A stretch of 22,878 bases of DNA from a virus (lineage: Duplodnaviria; Heunggongvirae; Uroviricota; Caudoviricetes): the IMG/VR virus record IMGVR_UViG_2574180019_000007. One strand, 5' to 3'. Within the stretch, counting starts at the first letter, position 1, and each line of letters opens with the position of its first letter. The notes beneath the pieces were generated by a model. The model did not search any database. It saw nothing but the letters and a program-made list of their open reading frames with translations, and was not told the origin of the DNA. Of the stretch, positions 3,198 through 21,221 are shown piece by piece. The translations under genes and the position numbers were made by a program.

Positions 3198-5755
3198 CGT
3201 CCACCTCCGGAGAACAGACCACCATCGCGCATCTGTGCCTGGATTTCATCACGGGCACCCTTGCGGGCCATGTCATACACCGCCTTCATCATCTGTGGAC
3301 CTGGCAGACCATTCGTACCGTCGTTCTGAATCACCACGTTGTTGTTCTGCTCAAACCTGATACCCTCTGAACGCCGCATTTGCGCCGGACTTCCGGTGCC
3401 ACCGACATAACCGCCGGTGGCATAGCCGCGCATCAGCCGGTAGAGATTTCCCACGCCAATCCGGCTGGTTGCCTCCTTCGTGAAGACAAATTCACCACGG
3501 TGAACAATCCCCGCTGGCTCATATTTGCCGCCGGTTCCCGTAAATCCTCCGGTTGCAAAATGGAGTTTCGCCGCAGCGGCCTGAATGGCTGTACCGCCTG
3601 ACGCGGATGCGCCGCCACCAACAGCCCCGCCAATAGCGCTGCCGATACTCCCGACAATCCCCACCATTGCCTGCTTAAGCAGAATTTCTGTCATCATGGA
3701 CAGCACGGAACGGGTGAAGCTGCGCCAGTTCTGTTCACTGCCGGTCAGCATCGCCGCCATATTCTGCGCAATACCATCAAAGGTCTGCGTGGCAGCACTT
3801 TTAACCTGCGACATACTGTCCGTGGCACTCTCTTCCCACTCACTCCAGCCGGACTTCAGGCCTGCCATCCAGTTCCCGCGAAGCAGGTCTTCAGCCGCCC
3901 AGGTCTTTTTCTGCTCTGACATGACGTTATTCAGCGCCAGAGGATTATCGCCATACTGTTCCTTCAGGCGCTGTTCCGTGGCTTCCCGTTCTGCCTGCCG
4001 GTCAGTCAGCCCCCGGCTTTTCGCATCAATAGCGGCCCGTTTTGCCCGTTGCTGCTGTGCGAATTTATCCGCCTGCTGCGCCAGCGCGTTCAGGCGCTCC
4101 TGATACGTAACCTTGTCGCCAAGTGCAGCCAGCTGGCGTTTGTACTCCAGCGTCTCATCTTTATGCGCCAGCAGGGATTTCTCCTGTGCAGACAGCTGGC
4201 GACGTTGCGCCGCCTCCTCCAGTACCGCGAACTGACTCTCCGCCTTCCACAAATCCCGGCGCTGCTGGCTGATTTTCTCATTTGCTCCGGCATGCTTCTC
4301 CAGCGTCCGGAGTTCAGCCTGAAGCGTCAGCAGGGCAGCATGAGCACTGTCTTCCTGACGATCGCCCGCAGACACCTTCACGCCGGACTGTTTCGGCTTT
4401 TTCAGCGTCGCTTCATAATCCTTTTTCGCCGCCGCCATCAGCGTGTTGTAATCTGCCTGCAGGATTTTCCCGTCTTTCAGTGCCTTGTTCAGTTCTTCCT
4501 GACGGGCGGTATATTTCTCCAGCGGTGTCTGCAGCCGTTCGTAAGCCTTCTGCGCCTCTTCGGTATATTTCAGCCGTGATGCTTCGGTATCGCTCTGCTG
4601 CTGCGCATTTTTGTCCTGTTGACTCTGCTGTTCAGCCTTCTTTCGGGCGGCTTCAAGCGCAAGACGGGCCTTTTCACGATCATCCCAGTAACGCGCCCGC
4701 GCTTCATCGTTAACAAAATAATCATCCTTGCGCAGATTCCAGATGTCGTCCGCTTTCTTAAACGCAGCCTCTGCCTTAATCAGCATCTCCTGAGCGGTAT
4801 CAGGACGACCAATATCCAGCACCGCATCCCACATGGATTTGAATGCCCGTGCTGTCCTGTCTGCCCAGGTTTCCAGCGTGCCCATGTTCTCTTTCAGGCG
4901 TCGGGTCTGGTCATCAAACCCTTTCGTTGCGGCCTCGTTCGCCGCCTGCAATGCCCCGGATTCATCGCCGGAACGCTGCAACTGAGCAACATACGCAATC
5001 TGCTCCGCCGTTACGTTATGGAACTGGCGCGCCATCGCCGTCAGCCCCGACGTCGGGTCAGTGGTCAGCTTCCCGAAGGCTTCAGCGACCTTGTCCACCT
5101 CCACGCCGGATGCAGAGGAGAAACGCGCCACACTCTGGCTGATGGATGCAATCTGAGCCTCACCGCTTACTCCCGCCTTAACCAGTGCGCTGAGTGACTC
5201 GCTGGTCTGGTTAAACGTCAGCCCTGCCGCCTGCCCGGCTCTGGACAGGACCAGCATACGATCTGCCGTCAGACCCGACTGATTGCCGGAAAGGACCAGC
5301 GTTTTGTTGAAATCGGACAGGGTTGAGTTACCCTGATACCAGGCATACGCCAGCGCACCGGTCGCCACCGCCAGCGAGGTGGCCCCGACCATCGGCAGGG
5401 TGATCGCACCGGCAAGCCCCCGGAACATGGGGATCATCCCGCCGAAGGAGTCCTTAACCTGACCACCCTGTTGCAGCAGGATCAGCCACGGGCTTTGCCC
5501 GCCTGCAAGCTGCGTGGCCACGTCGGTGAACTGTGCAGGCAGCATACGCATGGCGGCTTTATACTGCCCGACGGAAATCCCCGCTTTCTGTGCAGCCAGC
5601 GCCTGTCGGCTCAGCGACTGTTCAACGACTGCCGCTGTTTTTTTCGCATCACTTTCCGTACCGGAAAAATGACGCCTGACTCTGGCCATCTGCTCGTCAA
5701 ATCTGGCCGCATCCAGACTTAAATCAACGACCAGATCGCCTACCGGTTCAGCCAT
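3194..5755 (-). CDS. H: Tail tape measure protein H
   Basis: 853-aa ORF, the lambda gpH length. Long coiled-coil, Ala/Gln/Glu/Lys-rich central region and Gly-rich C-terminus (GGAVGGGASASGG). Sits between G-T and M. Confidence 0.95.
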   Translation of the reverse strand: MAEPVGDLVVDLSLDAARFDEQMARVRRHFSGTESDAKKTAAVVEQSLSRQALAAQKAGISVGQYKAAMRMLPAQFTDVATQLAGGQSPWLILLQQGGQVKDSFGGMIPMFRGLAGAITLPMVGATSLAVATGALAYAWYQGNSTLSDFNKTLVLSGNQSGLTADRMLVLSRAGQAAGLTFNQTSESLSALVKAGVSGEAQIASISQSVARFSSASGVEVDKVAEAFGKLTTDPTSGLTAMARQFHNVTAEQIAYVAQLQRSGDESGALQAANEAATKGFDDQTRRLKENMGTLETWADRTARAFKSMWDAVLDIGRPDTAQEMLIKAEAAFKKADDIWNLRKDDYFVNDEARARYWDDREKARLALEAARKKAEQQSQQDKNAQQQSDTEASRLKYTEEAQKAYERLQTPLEKYTARQEELNKALKDGKILQADYNTLMAAAKKDYEATLKKPKQSGVKVSAGDRQEDSAHAALLTLQAELRTLEKHAGANEKISQQRRDLWKAESQFAVLEEAAQRRQLSAQEKSLLAHKDETLEYKRQLAALGDKVTYQERLNALAQQADKFAQQQRAKRAAIDAKSRGLTDRQAEREATEQRLKEQYGDNPLALNNVMSEQKKTWAAEDLLRGNWMAGLKSGWSEWEESATDSMSQVKSAATQTFDGIAQNMAAMLTGSEQNWRSFTRSVLSMMTEILLKQAMVGIVGSIGSAIGGAVGGGASASGGTAIQAAAAKLHFATGGFTGTGGKYEPAGIVHRGEFVFTKEATSRIGVGNLYRLMRGYATGGYVGGTGSPAQMRRSEGIRFEQNNNVVIQNDGTNGLPGPQMMKAVYDMARKGARDEIQAQMRDGGLFSGGGR

Positions 5756-13661: not shown

Positions 13662-13864
13662 AACCTCACTCCCAGCGGACGACGGCGACACCGGGTTGTC
13701 CCCAGTACCGACTCCGCATCATTGATCGCCCGGTTAAGCTCATCCAGAGAAGCCGCCGTATATTCAATTCTGCGACCATCTTTCTGGACAGACACCACCC
13801 GTTTACCGGTTAATAAATCAAGGCGCGCCTGACGCAGCGCCTGCAGTTCAGCGACTGTAACCAT
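13658..13864 (-). CDS. W: Head-tail joining protein W
   Basis: 68-aa ORF, the lambda gpW length, with TGKRVVSVQKDGRRIEYTAAS resembling lambda W ([21 protein letters not shown]). Between A and B. Confidence 0.85.
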   Translation of the reverse strand: MVTVAELQALRQARLDLLTGKRVVSVQKDGRRIEYTAASLDELNRAINDAESVLGTTRCRRRPLGVRL

Positions 13865-15776
13865 TCACTCCTCCGGACAGCTTCGCTGCCAGTTCTTTAA
13901 GGGTTGGCCGGGTCGTCTCTTCTTCCCGGGATTTTGCCAGTACAGCCAGATCAAGCTGCCAGCGTTGCACGGACACACGTAATGCCGCGTAGGCATACAC
14001 CAGGCAGTCCAGCGCTTCGTTACGCCGCTTTTTGTTATCCCACAGCAGACGCATCTTTCCTTTTTCCCACTTCTCCACAAGCTCTTCCGCGACCAGTTGC
14101 TGCGCCTCTGTCTGCGAAAAAATCTCCGGATCATCAGGAAAACGGATGGCATACGACGTGGCTTCATCCGCAGGCGTGGGCTCGGCTTTCATACGGGCAT
14201 AGAGAATTTCTTTTGCGGTGTCCGTCCCCACTTCACACAGATAAACGCCCCGCTGATTGCGGGTTTTCGGCATGGTGATCACCGGCTTGCCATAGACAGA
14301 CGCGCCTTTTACCGGCAGCACCCGGAAAACACCGTGTTTTTTTGACCTCTGATAAACGATTTCGCCATCGATCCCCCCGATGTCCCAGCAGACACGGGAA
14401 ATGGTCATTTCGGTTCCGTCTGCATGGCGGTATTTTTTGTTGATCGCCGCATCCACACGTAACAGCGTCTCTTCCTCATCGGGACGCCCCATAATGATGA
14501 TTTTATCCACCAGAAAGGCTTCCTCTCCCGGAGCCCATCCCCAGACATACATCTCAAAACGGTTTCGCTGCGAGTCAATGCCCGCCGTCAGATAAACCAC
14601 CCGGGCAGGCACCGCCGCCGTGTAACGCACAACCTTATCCATCAGCACCTGGTGATCGAGTTTTTCGCCCACAGCCTCTTCCCAGGTCTCGCCCAGCGTG
14701 GTGTTCACAAAGGTTTTCAGGCCGTTGGGATCTTTCAGTGCATCCAGCCAGTCATAGACAATCTGTACCCAGGTGGTGAACGGACTGTACGCCGTCCAGA
14801 TATGGAAAGTGATGGAGCGCGGCGGCGGAATTTCATCACCCCGGGCGCTGAAAAACATCAGGCCGTCACGGGTCCACATGCCCGTGTTTTCACAGATCCA
14901 CCGCCCGTTACTCTGGTCAAGCTCAGACTGATGGATCACACAGCCATGATGCTCACAAAGGTAGAAAACACTTTCTGGCTTATTCTTCTCCCACTTAAGA
15001 CCGAAAGGCGAGGCATCATCGCCAAATTTCAGATACTGCTCCTCCCCACAGTGCGGACAGGGCACATAAAAACGCATGAAGTGTGCCGACTCGTTAGCGG
15101 CTTTTTCGATCTGGCAGGAGCCTTTGATTTTAGGCGTCGAGCCGCGAATGGATTTTGGCCATACAGAGCCCTCAATACGTTTATCCCCCAGCAGGGTTGG
15201 CGAACCCTCTTTTTCAACATCCGGTTCGAACGAGGAAAGCTCGTCATAACAGACCACATCCACGGATTTTTCACGGTAGTTTTTTGCTGCCGCACCACCC
15301 AGACACCAGAACCCCACACCGGAGGAAAAACGCTTCAGGGTGAGCGTATTATCGCGGTGTTTTCTTCCGAACCATGGAGCCAGCTCCAGCAATGCAGGAA
15401 CATCCCTTATCGTTGGCTCAACATGAGATTTCATAAAATCTTCAGCAGCTGAGTCCGTGGGCTGAAAAAGAAGGCTGTTGCGTGATTTATGCTCAATAAA
15501 ATAAGCCTCCACTCCCAGCAACATCTTTGTATAACCAACACGGGCAGATTTAATCAGGTTAACCGTGCGAATCAGATCGTTGCCCATACAGTTCATGATG
15601 CCAACCTGAAACGGCAGTGTTTCCCATCGCCCCGGGGTATAAGACGACTCTTTAGGAAGGTAATAATGTTTATTGGCCCACTGAACTGTCGTCAGTGGAA
15701 CAGGAATAATGAGAGATAAAAGCCCTGTAGCTATCGCACCGGCTGCATTAGCTGCCTTCTGCGCGTCTGAAATCAT
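13848..15776 (-). CDS. A: Terminase large subunit A
   Basis: Contains [20 protein letters not shown], Walker-type ATPase region, and the C-terminal nuclease region (WDIGGIDG..., [19 protein letters not shown]) as in lambda gpA. Start placed at the ATG at 15774-15776 (MISDAQ...), giving a ~29-nt overlap with Nu1 comparable to lambda. The upstream ATG at 15816-15818 is an alternative. Confidence 0.9.
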
Positions 15777-16296
15777 CGATCCACCCGCCCACGTTTTCAC
15801 CGGCCTTAGCTGCAACATTGGAGGCTTTCGCGATTTCAGTTTTCACCACATCAAGGTGTGATGGTGAAATGTCCGGATATTTACGCTGTAATGTCAACGG
15901 CACACGCACAAGTATCCCCGAAATCTCCTGTGCCACACGTTGCAGAATGAAGGTAAACAGTTCAGTTTCCAGCACTACTCCGTCTTCACGGGCATTTTTC
16001 AGTTCCTGCGCATCTGCCTGCGCTTTTGTGAGCCGGTAGCGTTCATAGTCAATGGTGCCGGGTTGTAAATCTGACTCCGCTGCCGCACGCAAATCGTCCA
16101 GTTCTTTGCGGAGCTTTTCGTTTTCGATATCAGTTTCCCTCTGCGCATACCACTGAATTGCCATGGCAGTATCAAATACAGATTCAATGCCCTTACTACC
16201 TTTGGAGGCGCAAGGGAGTCCCTGAGACTGCCAGCGTTCAATCGTCCGCGGGTCCACGTTGAAAATTTCGGCAAGCCTCTTTTTATTAACCTTCAT
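15748..16296 (-). CDS. Nu1: Terminase small subunit Nu1
   Basis: 182-aa [31 protein letters not shown]... with winged-HTH N-terminus and the blocks [44 protein letters not shown] matching remembered lambda Nu1. Immediately adjacent to cos. Confidence 0.9.
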
Positions 16297-16472: not shown

Positions 16473-16484
16473 AGGTCGCCGCCC
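16473..16484. other. cosN: 12-nt cohesive-end sequence (reverse complement of GGGCGGCGACCT)
   Basis: Plus strand reads AGGTCGCCGCCC at 16473-16484, flanked by CGCG on one side and CGTAACCTGTTGGATCG on the other. This is the reverse complement of the lambda genome ends (...ACAGGTTACG / GGGCGGCGACCTCGCGGG...). Confidence 0.85.
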
Positions 16485-16535
16485 CGTAACCTGTTGGATC
16501 GACGGAAAGGACCCGAAAACGAGAATAATTATCAC

Positions 16536-16565
16536 TTACAGCAAGAATCGAATCTGATCTATTAT
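16536..16565 (+). promoter_or_regulatory. Candidate sigma70 promoter for the plus-strand small-ORF pair
   Basis: TTACAG (16536-16541), 18-nt spacer, TATTAT (16560-16565), about 70 bp upstream of the 16633 start. Assigned by eye only. Confidence 0.25.
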
Positions 16566-16632
16566 GGTGCTTGCTATTATGTGCCGGCACAAGTGCGTCG
16601 TTTACCGTCATTTCACACAGAGGCATCATCAA

Positions 16633-16884
16633 ATGAAAATCAGAAATATTCTCGCTATCTCCCTTGCGACATCATCCTTCAGTTGCCTGGCATTTAAATC
16701 CTCGCCCAATGTGCTACCAGGACCAACGAATCAACTAACTGCGGTAGAAAGTAAAATTATCGGACATTTTTATGCCCCACACAGTACATTACCCGGAACA
16801 ACCATCACAGGGACATGTGACGCCTCCCCCGTCCCGGGATGCACCTGTCCGTTTTGTACTATGCTGCGTAGCCAAAACCGATAA
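16633..16884 (+). CDS. Small secreted Cys-rich protein of unknown function (83 aa, predicted Sec signal peptide)
   Basis: ATG at 16633 preceded by RBS AGAGG. N-terminus MKIRNILAISLATSSFSCLA is signal-peptide-like. C-terminus has a CDASPVPGCTCPFC cluster. Transcribed opposite to the late operon. Confidence 0.5.
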   Translation: MKIRNILAISLATSSFSCLAFKSSPNVLPGPTNQLTAVESKIIGHFYAPHSTLPGTTITGTCDASPVPGCTCPFCTMLRSQNR

Positions 16885-16945
16885 CATCCGCATTTACCTG
16901 GTATTCCATGATGAGTTCACGCAGCGACTGATAGAGGAAGGAAAG

Positions 16946-17125
16946 ATGGTTAGTAAAAGCAAGGCGCATTGCCGCCGCATGCTGCAGGCATTGCAACAGA
17001 CGAGAGCAGGTATTTTTGACCAGTTGGAAAACTGCCAGCATACTTTGCCCGAGTATATCGCCATCTCATCGGAAACCAGTGCAACTCTTATTCATCGGGT
17101 TCCACCAGAGAAAAAGAAGAAATGA
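16946..17125 (+). CDS. Small hypothetical protein (59 aa, basic C-terminus)
   Basis: ATG at 16946 preceded by a strong RBS (GAGGAAGGAAAG). Followed by a hairpin terminator. No recognisable domain. Confidence 0.4.
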   Translation: MVSKSKAHCRRMLQALQQTRAGIFDQLENCQHTLPEYIAISSETSATLIHRVPPEKKKK

Positions 17126-17132
17126 ACAGTGA

Positions 17133-17165
17133 GGCGTTGTGTGGCATACAACGCCTTCTTCCATC
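17133..17165 (+). terminator. Candidate intrinsic terminator after the small-ORF pair
   Basis: AGGCGTTGT (17133-17141), loop GTGGCAT, ACAACGCCT (17149-17157), followed by TCTTCCATCATTCC. The pyrimidine tract is only moderately U-rich. Confidence 0.4.
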
Positions 17166-17247
17166 ATTCCTCGTCAGCCATGACAAAAATATAACCGCTG
17201 GCTCTTTCATTTTTCTCCTGCTTCCAGCCCCTCTCTACCTGGAAGCA

Positions 17248-17574
17248 TCAAGGACGTGACGGCGTAAAGATAAATTGTCTCTTCACTCCCTGACAGGGGC
17301 GATTCTTTTCAAATCGCCATTTCGCCATGGCCTTCACCACTTCATCACGAAACAAATTATGAGGCTCTGAGCGGAGAAAAACGATCCGTGTCACAGTCCC
17401 ATCAGCACCAATATCGAACTTAACCTCAACCAGCCCCTTGATATAATTTGCTGCAGCATATTCCGGATATCGTGGATACACCGTCACTAATTGCCGGGGC
17501 TCATCAGCTTTTTGCTGCGAGCATCCCACTGCCAGGACAGATAACAGAAAAAGTAGTAAAAGGCGTCTTTTCAT
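17248..17574 (-). CDS. Lipoprotein with TonB C-terminal-domain-like region (108 aa)
   Basis: ATG at 17572-17574 preceded by RBS AGGAA. N-terminus MKRRLLLLFLLSVLAVGC is a lipoprotein signal with lipobox LAVGC. The remainder, YPRYPEYAAANYIKGLVEVKFDIGADGTVTRIVFLRSEPHNLFRDEVVKAMAKWRF, resembles the TonB C-terminal domain pattern (YP..A....EG.V.V.F.V..DG.V....V..S......D.A...A...WRF). Confidence 0.6.
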   Translation of the reverse strand: MKRRLLLLFLLSVLAVGCSQQKADEPRQLVTVYPRYPEYAAANYIKGLVEVKFDIGADGTVTRIVFLRSEPHNLFRDEVVKAMAKWRFEKNRPCQGVKRQFIFTPSRP

Positions 17575-18054: not shown

Positions 18055-18348
18055 ATGAAAAAAATGTTGTTTTCTGCCGCTCTGGCAATGCTTATTACAG
18101 GATGTGCTCAACAGACGTTTACTGTTGGAAACAAACCTACAGCAGTAACACCAAAGGAAACCATCACCCATCATTTCTTCGTTTCGGGAATTGGGCAGAA
18201 GAAAACTGTCGATGCAGCAAAAATTTGTGGTGGTGCAGAAAATGTTGTTAAAACAGAAACCCAGCAAACATTCGTAAATGGATTGCTCGGTTTTATTACT
18301 TTAGGCATTTATACTCCGCTGGAAGCGCGTGTGTATTGCTCACAATAA
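18055..18348 (+). CDS. bor: Bor outer-membrane lipoprotein (serum-resistance factor)
   Basis: 97-aa product MKKMLFSAALAMLITGCAQQTFTV...PLEARVYCSQ matches my memory of lambda Bor (97 aa), with lipobox LITGC. Oriented opposite to the late genes, as in lambda. Confidence 0.9.
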   Translation: MKKMLFSAALAMLITGCAQQTFTVGNKPTAVTPKETITHHFFVSGIGQKKTVDAAKICGGAENVVKTETQQTFVNGLLGFITLGIYTPLEARVYCSQ

Positions 18349-18379: not shown

Positions 18380-18841
18380 CTATCTGCACTGCTCATTAAT
18401 ATACTTCTGGGTTCCTTCCAGTTGTTTTTGCATAGTGATCAGCCTCTCTCTGAGGGTGAAATAATCCCGTTCAGCGGTGTCTGCCAGTCGGGGGGAGGCT
18501 GCATTATCCACGCCGGAGGCGGTGGTGGCTTCACGCACTGACTGACAGACTGCTTTGATGTGCAACCGACGACGACCAGCGGCAACATCATCACGCAGAG
18601 CATCATTTTCAGCTTTCGCATCAGCTAACTCCTTCGTGTATTTTGCATCGAGCGCAGCAACATCACGCTGACGCATCTGTATGTCAGTAATTGCCGCGTT
18701 CGCCAGCGTCAGTTCTCTGGCATTTTTGTCGCGCTGGGCTTTGTAGGTAATGGCGTTATCACGGTAATGATTAACAGCCCATGACAGGCAGACGATGATG
18801 CAGATAACCAGAGCGGAGATAATCGCGGTTACTCTGTTCAT
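18380..18841 (-). CDS. Rz: Inner-membrane spanin subunit Rz
   Basis: Sequence from [43 protein letters not shown]... to ...YINEQCR matches remembered lambda Rz. Start placed at the ATG overlapping the R stop (153 aa); the track's version starts 4 codons upstream. Confidence 0.9.
18439..18621 (-). CDS. Rz1: Outer-membrane lipoprotein spanin subunit Rz1, embedded in Rz in the +1 frame
   Basis: 60-aa [63 protein letters not shown]: lipoprotein signal, proline-rich mature peptide, nearly identical to remembered lambda Rz1. Confidence 0.85.
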
Positions 18842-19335
18842 TGCTGACCCCACAAACAGATTTCACGCTCAATCTCACGACGAGTCATGAGACCTTTCCA
18901 TTGCTTACCGCCAGCATATGTCCAGCGACGTAGCTGATCACATGCGCCTTTGATATCGCCCTGGTTTATTTTGCGAAGAAGCGTCGATGTTCTGAAATTG
19001 CCAGCACCCACGTTGTAAACGAATGAGTAAAGAGCGCCGCGCATTGTTTCCGGTATATCGACTTTGATGTACGGGTTAATTTGTCTGGCGACCGTGGCAA
19101 GGTCTTTATTCAGGAGGGCTTTGCATTCTGCTTTGGTATACGTTTTACCGAGCATGATGTCTTTTCCTGTATGCCCGTGACATACAGTCCATACACCAAC
19201 AATATCTTTGTATGGTATGTAGCTGACACCTTCCAGACCATCGTTACCACTTGGGCCAGTGATTAACACTGATGCTATAGCAATTGCTCCGCCACCAATA
19301 GCAGCAGCAACGGCTTTTCGTAATGATGGAGGCAT
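18838..19335 (-). CDS. R: SAR endolysin (T4-lysozyme-like, phage 21 R type)
   Basis: 165-aa ORF with a Gly/Ala-rich N-terminal signal-anchor-release segment ([20 protein letters not shown]), then the E-x8-D-x5-T catalytic spacing ([16 protein letters not shown]). Matches my memory of the phage 21 / DLP12 RrrD-type endolysin and is unlike the lambda R transglycosylase. Confidence 0.9.
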
Positions 19336-19711: not shown

Positions 19712-20138
19712 TAAGCTGTGTGACGAAGTAACCACTCTTAACAGCATAACCAATTTTTTACGTACGTAAACTACTAAATGATATTTGTGAGAATGCCACC
19801 GAGTGTTCAAAACACCACCACAAATGCATAAGAAAACTTCAACAAATAACCAGTTAATAATTTCCGATGTTATTTTTAGTTTGTTTAAATTAAGCTAAAG
19901 AATTATAGAGCACTTATAAATAAGTGCCATTAATATAAATTAGCTAATAGATTTATTTTTGTTCAGACAAGAGCCATGAATAGGATTAGATAGAAAAGGT
20001 TCAGATAAAAATAGAGATCTACTTCACAAATTAAATGAGAAACTAAAACTTACATCTTGAAATAATCACATTGATTAGATGAATATTTATCGCGCAGTGA
20101 CATCATTTTTTAATAAAAGTTCAAAAAAAGGGCGTACA

Positions 20139-21221
20139 ATGAAAAAATTAACAGTGGCAATTTCTGCTGTAGCTGCATCAGTACTGATGGCGATGTCTGC
20201 TCAGGCAGCTGAAATTTATAATAAAGACAGTAACAAGCTGGATCTATACGGGAAAGTTAATGCCAAGCACTACTTCTCCTCTAATGATGCAGATGATGGT
20301 GATACTACTTATGCCCGTCTTGGCTTCAAAGGTGAAACCCAAATCAACGATCAACTGACTGGTTTCGGTCAGTGGGAATATGAATTCAAAGGCAACCGTG
20401 CTGAATCTCAAGGTTCTTCCAAAGACAAAACCCGTCTTGCATTTGCAGGCCTGAAATTTGGTGATTACGGCTCAATCGATTACGGCCGTAACTACGGTGT
20501 AGCATACGACATCGGTGCGTGGACTGACGTTCTGCCAGAATTCGGTGGTGATACCTGGACCCAAACAGATGTGTTCATGACTGGTCGCACTACTGGTGTT
20601 GCAACTTATCGTAACAACGACTTCTTTGGTCTGGTCGATGGCCTGAACTTTGCTGCTCAGTATCAGGGTAAAAATGACCGCACTGACGTAACTGAAGCCA
20701 ATGGTGATGGTTTCGGTTTCTCCACTACTTATGAGTATGAAGGATTCGGCGTGGGTGCAACCTATGCTAAATCAGATCGCACTGACGGTCAGGTCGCCTA
20801 TGGTAAGAGCAAATTCAATGCCTCCGGCAAAAATGCGGAAGTATGGGCTGCAGGCCTGAAATATGATGCGAACAATATCTATCTGGCTACCACATATTCT
20901 GAAACTCAGAATATGACCGTTTTTGGTAATAACCATATTGCAAACAAAGCACAAAACTTTGAAGCAGTAGCACAATATCAGTTTGACTTCGGTCTGCGTC
21001 CATCTGTTGCTTACCTTCAGTCAAAAGGTAAAGACCTTGGTGTTCATGGTGACCGAGACTTAGTCAAGTATGTCGATGTCGGTGCTACTTACTACTTTAA
21101 TAAAAACATGTCCACTTTTGTTGATTACAAAATCAACTTAATTGACGATAGTAAGTTTACCAAAACAGCTGGTATTGATACCGACGACATCGTCGCTGTA
21201 GGTCTGGTTTATCAGTTCTAA
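20139..21221 (+). CDS. nmpC: OmpC-family general porin (NmpC / Lc-like phage-encoded porin)
   Basis: 360-aa product from ATG at 20139 (RBS AAGGG). Signal peptide [23 protein letters not shown], then [17 protein letters not shown]..., classical enterobacterial porin blocks ([81 protein letters not shown]) and C-terminal ...VGLVYQF. Opposite strand to Q and the lysis genes. The gene symbol is by analogy with DLP12. Confidence 0.9.

Follow-up and report, generated by a model that had tools for sequence, protein, structure and literature searches.

The analysed stretch, hereafter the window, is 22,878 nucleotides long and is filled by a phage 21-type lambdoid prophage whose orientation is reversed relative to the lambda map. 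Its interval 16300–17300 matches the right end of phage 21 (OL657228) at 100% identity, and matches prophage DNA of CFT073, of Nissle 1917 and of many ExPEC strains equally well. Of 5426 complete E. coli genomes, 1232 (Nissle 1917 among them) contain a copy of the 751-bp stretch 16500–17250 with at least 95% identity. Two small plus-strand open reading frames, ORF1 and ORF2, lie here, at least 148 nt inside the right cohesive end, and the features that surround them are as follows.

13848–15818, minus strand: TerL
15748–16296, minus strand: TerS of the Nu1 type
16473–16484: cosN cohesive end AGGTCGCCGCCC, where phage 21 records start and end; junction of the left and right genome ends
16508–16514: cosQ, as annotated in OL657228
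16515–16539: Fur-box-like AT-rich element, with 15 of 19 matches to GATAATGATAATCATTATC at 16515–16533
16537–16565, plus strand: weak candidate sigma-70 promoter TTACAG-17-TATTAT, read by eye
16580–16591: perfect 12-bp palindrome TGTGCCGGCACA, 47 nt upstream of the ORF1 ATG
16620–16623, plus strand: ORF1 Shine-Dalgarno GAGG, 9 nt ahead of the ATG
16633–16884, plus strand: ORF1, encoding a small secreted Cys4 protein as an 83-aa precursor; recognised as a real gene from homologs in five genera and from pN/pS
16633–16692, plus strand: Sec signal peptide of ORF1 (MKIRN, a hydrophobic core and C-L-A↓F, cut after Ala20), from alignments A1 and A2
16816–16857, plus strand: invariant Cys cluster G-T-C-x7-C-x-C-x2-C of ORF1 (C62, C70, C72 and C75, with G69)
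16859–17041, minus strand: antisense 60-aa ORF (WP_000881610.1; CPT_21_75), called by most PGAP records and in phage 21
16946–17125, plus strand: ORF2, a 59-aa basic orphan frame (net charge about +5) preceded by GAGGAAGGAAAG
17088–17210, minus strand: second annotated minus-strand ORF (40 aa, phage 21 record)
17131–17157: hairpin with a 12-bp stem, 6 nt after the ORF2 stop
17248–17574, minus strand: gene for a TonB_C-domain lipoprotein (Pfam E = 1e-12), in the same direction as the late genes
18055–18348, plus strand: iss/bor, 1.2 kb from ORF1
18380–18853, minus strand: Rz
20079–21221, plus strand: NmpC/Lc-type porin gene, upstream of the lysis cassette and antisense to the late genes

ORF1 and ORF2 are antisense to the late genes, as Nu1/TerL, the TonB_C gene and Rz are all encoded on the minus strand, and ORF1 occupies the zone in which bor-type morons lie. 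A sequence-only reading of the window had described two plus-strand frames with good ribosome-binding sites, running against late transcription in a region that departs from lambda, the first encoding a Sec-exported protein with a C-terminal Cys cluster and the second a basic protein. As sequence features, these were confirmed, down to the Cys spacing C62-x7-C70-x-C72-x2-C75. What that reading had added by way of interpretation (a two-gene cassette, possibly encoding a toxin or bacteriocin, with a promoter and a hairpin terminator of its own) held up less well, as set out below.

ORF1 is a genuine gene under purifying selection. A protein search recovered 22 homolog clusters from Salmonella, Klebsiella and Citrobacter, mostly of 83–84 aa and with 55–77% identity, and a genome scan added Buttiauxella copies at 52–57% identity. 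Across 11 orthologous DNAs the ORF1 frame shows a mean pS of 0.665 against a pN of 0.195 (ratio 0.29) and is the only frame open in 11 of 11, the remaining frames having pN/pS above 1 or stop codons. The initiation region GG..ATCATCA(A/G)ATGAAA is kept across genera, and the start is therefore placed at 16633 rather than at the upstream ATG at 16564.

Current annotation misses this gene: neither the nine RefSeq E. coli records examined (CFT073 among them) nor the three phage annotations examined, phage 21 included, call ORF1, and a probably spurious antisense ORF is annotated nearby instead. That 60-aa frame is interrupted by the nonsense change E46* in three of nine haplotypes and by a frameshift in one more, none of its substitutions is synonymous, and its hits are confined to E. 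coli. Because nonsense and frameshift changes occur in several natural haplotypes, the annotated minus-strand frames at 16859–17041 and 17088–17210 are probably not genes. The mis-annotation probably arose because codon usage favours the antisense frame: a log-odds score trained on the long genes of the window rates it best (+0.19) and ranks ORF1 with non-coding DNA (−0.24 bits per codon). The score is uninformative here and cannot decide the status of ORF2.

ORF2 could be a real second gene, co-transcribed with ORF1, that corresponds in position to ylcI (DUF3950) and encodes a small, basic protein of the cytoplasm. It has a strong Shine-Dalgarno sequence and an ATG, with the hairpin 6 nt past its stop, it is intact in eight of nine haplotypes, some PGAP records annotate it (WP_000253883.1), and a DUF3950 gene occupies the analogous slot both in DLP12 and in a second lambdoid lineage, L017. 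We nevertheless regard this reading as somewhat less likely than not. ORF2 matches phrog_4843 over its full length, a family drawn from the same phages; no diverged homolog was found in proteins, phages or E. coli genomes, distant blastn and tblastn turned up no diverged copy of the region, and the copies known are near-identical ones from E. coli. Profile searches gave no NCBIfam hit and no Pfam hit at E ≤ 1 (PF13132 included), and BLASTP produced no alignment with the DUF3950 protein of L017. The lineage represented by L024 has a 1-bp insertion at codon 5 and three nonsynonymous changes, and its truncated product is seen on 486 contigs; outside this lineage there are two synonymous changes and one nonsynonymous. 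Over all nine E. coli haplotypes the tally is two synonymous, four nonsynonymous and one frameshift, too little polymorphism to settle coding. The pairing of ORF1 with ORF2 is kept nowhere beyond the near-identical E. coli module. The proposal of a two-gene cassette is thus not borne out, and the expected homologs and conservation across related prophages were found for ORF1 (homologs at 52–77% identity in other genera, pN/pS 0.29, a 71%-identical copy in L017) but not for ORF2. ORF2 may be co-transcribed with ORF1 up to the hairpin at 17131–17157; if it is not a gene, the stretch is the 3′ UTR of ORF1 up to that hairpin. The annotations of PhiR57_1 and ev017 select other plus-strand frames.

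The ORF1 product begins with a leader that follows one pattern in 26 diverse family members, namely MK(I/V)R, 13–14 hydrophobic or small residues and (C/A/S)-x-A↓F (arrow, cleavage site), with A20 and F21 conserved in at least 90% of them. One alternative is a Bor-like lipoprotein of the outer membrane, with Cys18 as the lipidated residue. This residue is invariant in 18 enterobacterial members, and SSFSC fits the permissive PROSITE lipobox pattern when checked by hand; position −3 of the putative lipobox, however, is not Leu, and about 15 distant members carry Ala, Ser or Gly in place of Cys18 while keeping AxA↓F, in the form ALA↓FQ or AMA↓FQ. Since the distant members keep the cleavage motif but lose the cysteine, the leader is a signal peptidase I signal and not a lipobox; the lipoprotein reading was rejected on these homologs and we consider it quite improbable.

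In the remainder of the protein, C62, G69, C70, C72 and C75 are the only invariant columns among the 26 members. An exhaustive profile search extended the family to 31 clusters at 50% identity, about 25 of which are proteins of roughly 80–85 aa, and the distant clusters retain both AxA↓F(Q/K) and the four cysteines. No meaningful match was obtained against Pfam, NCBIfam, PHROGs or PDB sequence profiles, or in an Rfam search, and a search of the literature for the ORF1 family or for Zur-regulated small proteins returned nothing relevant and no expression data. AlphaFold runs on alignments of 18 and then 26 sequences reached pLDDT values of 49 and 59 and yielded only a helix at about residues 32–46 and a short C-terminal helix; as the structure prediction is of low confidence, it offers no fold that would support metal binding. 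A motif like the C-terminal knuckle of the family, P-G-C-N-C-P-K-C-T-x-L-R, is repeated four to five times in P0058 and P0060, which are long, low-complexity, eukaryote-like proteins without a Pfam match.

What the peptide does is suggested by where its relatives are found. The homologs are free-standing, and their neighbours vary from locus to locus.

Citrobacter chromosome: between a FecI-FecR-TonB-dependent receptor set and a NarL/NarX-like pair
C. koseri: flanked by a lipid A acyltransferase gene and icd
L027: close to ZnuA/ABC-3/ABC_tran genes, with dihydroorotase-type (Amidohydro_1) and ALAD genes on the upstream side
L028: adjoining an SBP_bac_5 ABC transporter
L030: immediately after a COG0523 (CobW) gene
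Klebsiella plasmid: adjoining Fur-family and CobW genes
Salmonella island: in the order PPC-domain gene, ORF1 homolog, bor, omptin

A COG0523 gene thus adjoins an ORF1 homolog in two independent cases, and ZnuA-ABC genes are nearby in one. The Klebsiella copy, 63% identical to ORF1, resides on conjugative plasmids (L004 3805–4252, CP024459), where it is mostly unannotated; 66 Klebsiella plasmids in PLSDB carry the locus. It is preceded by a decayed cos site and apparently derives, as a fragment, from the right end of a phage.

Upstream of the homologs, predicted operators of the zinc-responsive type recur. With the published E. coli Zur pattern TGWNAYRWTATAWYRTNWCA (PMC4219657), matches with at most three mismatches lie within 120 nt upstream in 8 of 13 distinct contexts; the other 104 kb hold four Zur-pattern clusters, two of them ahead of the adjacent cobW (P about 2.5e-16). 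The core TGTTAT-N3-ATAACA is perfect 29 nt upstream in Buttiauxella and 82 nt upstream in L030. In all four Salmonella loci the ORF1 homolog directly follows the PPC-domain gene, and a perfect core box stands ahead of the latter; core boxes with one or two mismatches are present in six further loci. Counted by the core pattern, a box is found in 10 of 13 contexts: in nine it lies immediately upstream of the gene, and in the tenth, the Salmonella island, ahead of the PPC gene. The copies without a Zur box are those of the window, L017, the Klebsiella plasmid and one metagenomic lineage. Judged by these sequence motifs, the family looks to be Zur-regulated, and the combination of Zur operators with zinc and uptake genes as neighbours suggests that it forms part of the zinc-starvation response.

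In the window itself the best match to the Zur pattern has 6 mismatches in 20, which is background, and there is no core box. The palindrome TGTGCCGGCACA is by itself at chance level and has six mismatches to the Zur pattern, and L017 carries a degenerate Zur-like palindrome at the corresponding position. A 20-mer Zur hit in L017 was downgraded, as it fails the core pattern and leaves only that degenerate palindrome.

In the islands of Salmonella salamae, arizonae and diarizonae (L007 3454–3905; L013, L014, L021), the Zur box TGTTATAGTATAACA precedes the secreted PPC-domain gene, and the set of PPC gene, ORF1 homolog, bor and omptin may constitute a Zur-controlled envelope or virulence cluster.

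These contexts bear directly on the suggestion that ORF1 encodes a secreted toxin or bacteriocin-like peptide. Such a role would suit a small, secreted, Cys-rich product that is prophage-borne and common in ExPEC strains, but the leader is a Sec signal rather than a double-glycine one, the protein resembles no toxin family in the libraries searched, and no immunity or export genes adjoin ORF1 or its homologs in the contexts examined. In several genera, moreover, the ortholog is a single-copy gene of the chromosome with a Zur box ahead of it, in non-phage surroundings. We accordingly judge a toxin or bacteriocin to be very improbable, and this part of the sequence-only reading is not upheld.

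We consider it probable that ORF1 is instead a moron captured from a zinc-starvation regulon, encoding a periplasmic zinc-handling peptide. The gene is carried at the right end of phage 21-type prophages and runs against the late operon. Its product is predicted to leave the cytoplasm through Sec and to be cleaved after Ala20 by signal peptidase I, giving a periplasmic peptide of about 63 aa that has one predicted helix and, at its C terminus, a C-x7-C-x-C-x2-C knuckle. The chromosomal relatives stand alone behind predicted Zur operators, often beside COG0523, ZnuA/ABC or TonB-dependent uptake genes, and the most likely task of the four cysteines would be to bind Zn(II) or hand it over in the periplasm. 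Of the functions that operators and neighbours would accommodate, zinc binding or hand-over is the most economical for ORF1.

The chemistry of the compartment gives rise to the main rival. Periplasmic cysteines are usually oxidised to disulfides by DsbA, which disfavours a thiolate zinc site, and in an oxidising periplasm the four invariant cysteines could equally form two disulfides. The mature peptide might then be a disulfide-knotted periplasmic or envelope factor that binds no metal, for instance an inhibitor or a protective protein that is induced along with the Zur regulon. The C-x-C-x2-C spacing, on the other hand, is more typical of metal knuckles, and the recurrence of ORF1 homologs beside COG0523, ZnuA and TonB-dependent uptake genes also argues for a role in metal handling. 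Zur regulons do include non-metal periplasmic proteins, such as the lysozyme inhibitor PliG (PMC4219657), and in Salmonella the homolog has the envelope virulence genes bor and omptin as neighbours. Weighing these points, we hold a metal-free envelope factor to be unlikely and retain zinc handling as the preferred function.

How the gene came to its place beside cos can be partly reconstructed. Among 50,697 phage records only 7 contain ORF1, which is present in some, absent from other, otherwise syntenic phages. It is absent from lambda and from DLP12, which carries ylcI beside cos in its place. The second lambdoid lineage, L017, encodes a 71%-identical homolog (P0009) in the same cos-adjacent slot, in the order Nu1, cos, ORF1 homolog, small lipoprotein ORF, DUF3950 gene and Rz. 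Between the window and L017, pN is 0.17 and pS is 0.80; so diverged a copy in the same slot indicates long retention under purifying selection. From cos onward, the window, L017 and the Klebsiella plasmid copies have homologous DNA upstream of the gene, and this sharing among three cos-linked copies points to a single capture beside cos followed by long divergence. The module with ORF1 recombines with differing terminase and cos left arms. In L017 the small lipoprotein ORF (MKYFALISALLLSAC..., 4346–4480) separates the ORF1 homolog from the DUF3950 gene, and the cos-adjacent zone appears to collect genes for small exported proteins.

A phage that captured the gene once beside cos would subsequently have lost the Zur box, and the phage copy, if expressed in the lysogen, would probably benefit it under metal limitation in the host. 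A metal-homeostasis moron would in that case be added to the classic bor/lom set. The relatives of ORF1, for their part, point to a new small-protein member of the Enterobacterales zinc-starvation regulon. A wider proposal, which we advance only tentatively, is that they represent an undescribed family of Zur-regulated periplasmic Cys4 peptides for zinc scavenging or chaperoning, which temperate phages and conjugative Klebsiella plasmids have uncoupled from Zur, perhaps bringing it under Fur control through the box on the cosQ side, and which, spread by them, would raise the fitness of ExPEC in the face of nutritional immunity.

The Fur-box-like element lies between cosQ and the weak candidate promoter. 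It is the only hit in the window with at most four mismatches, a level that local shuffles reach in 2 of 2000 cases. Elements with 15–16 of 19 matches also occur at 3861–3885 in L017, at 4090–4114 in DLP12 (L036) and at 4334–4358 in the Salmonella island of L007, the last upstream of the bor homolog. The element may be an operator that places antisense moron genes under iron control, or may be part of the cos architecture.

A promoter and a hairpin terminator belonging to these genes are weakly indicated. The TTACAG-17-TATTAT candidate is weak, although partly alignable in other cos-adjacent copies, and a consensus promoter scan found none correctly placed for ORF1. The hairpin at 17131–17157 is stable on either strand (plus: ΔG −18.5 kcal/mol, z = −3.3; minus: ΔG −21.8 kcal/mol, z = −3.6), but it has no U-tract (its tail is CTTCCATC) and the terminator scan did not call it. 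A weak or bidirectional terminator is possible from these features.

Among known systems, bor/iss offers the closest positional parallel: a gene for a small exported protein that lies between cos and the lysis cassette, runs against late transcription and, as with ORF1, is variably present among lambdoid phages. The two share no sequence similarity, the ORF1 product is most likely a soluble signal peptidase I product whereas bor encodes a lipoprotein, and the relatives of ORF1 are chromosomal genes behind Zur boxes. [quoted passage not shown] They are, however, not homologous to the ORF1 product, which is much smaller (about 63 aa when mature); ZinT is His-based where the ORF1 product is Cys-based, and the phage copy of ORF1 lacks the operator. 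With YlcI (DUF3950) and YbcW of DLP12 and the right-end ORFs of lambda the likeness is one of neighbourhood, ylcI being antisense and cos-adjacent, and neither ORF1 nor ORF2 is homologous to any of them.

Two further genes of the window deserve mention. The PHROGs name for the family of the TonB_C lipoprotein, ‘Rz-like spanin’, looks like a mislabel, and the protein might interfere with TonB-dependent uptake or with superinfection. The NmpC/Lc-type porin gene is a further conversion gene, comparable to those of DLP12 and PA-2.
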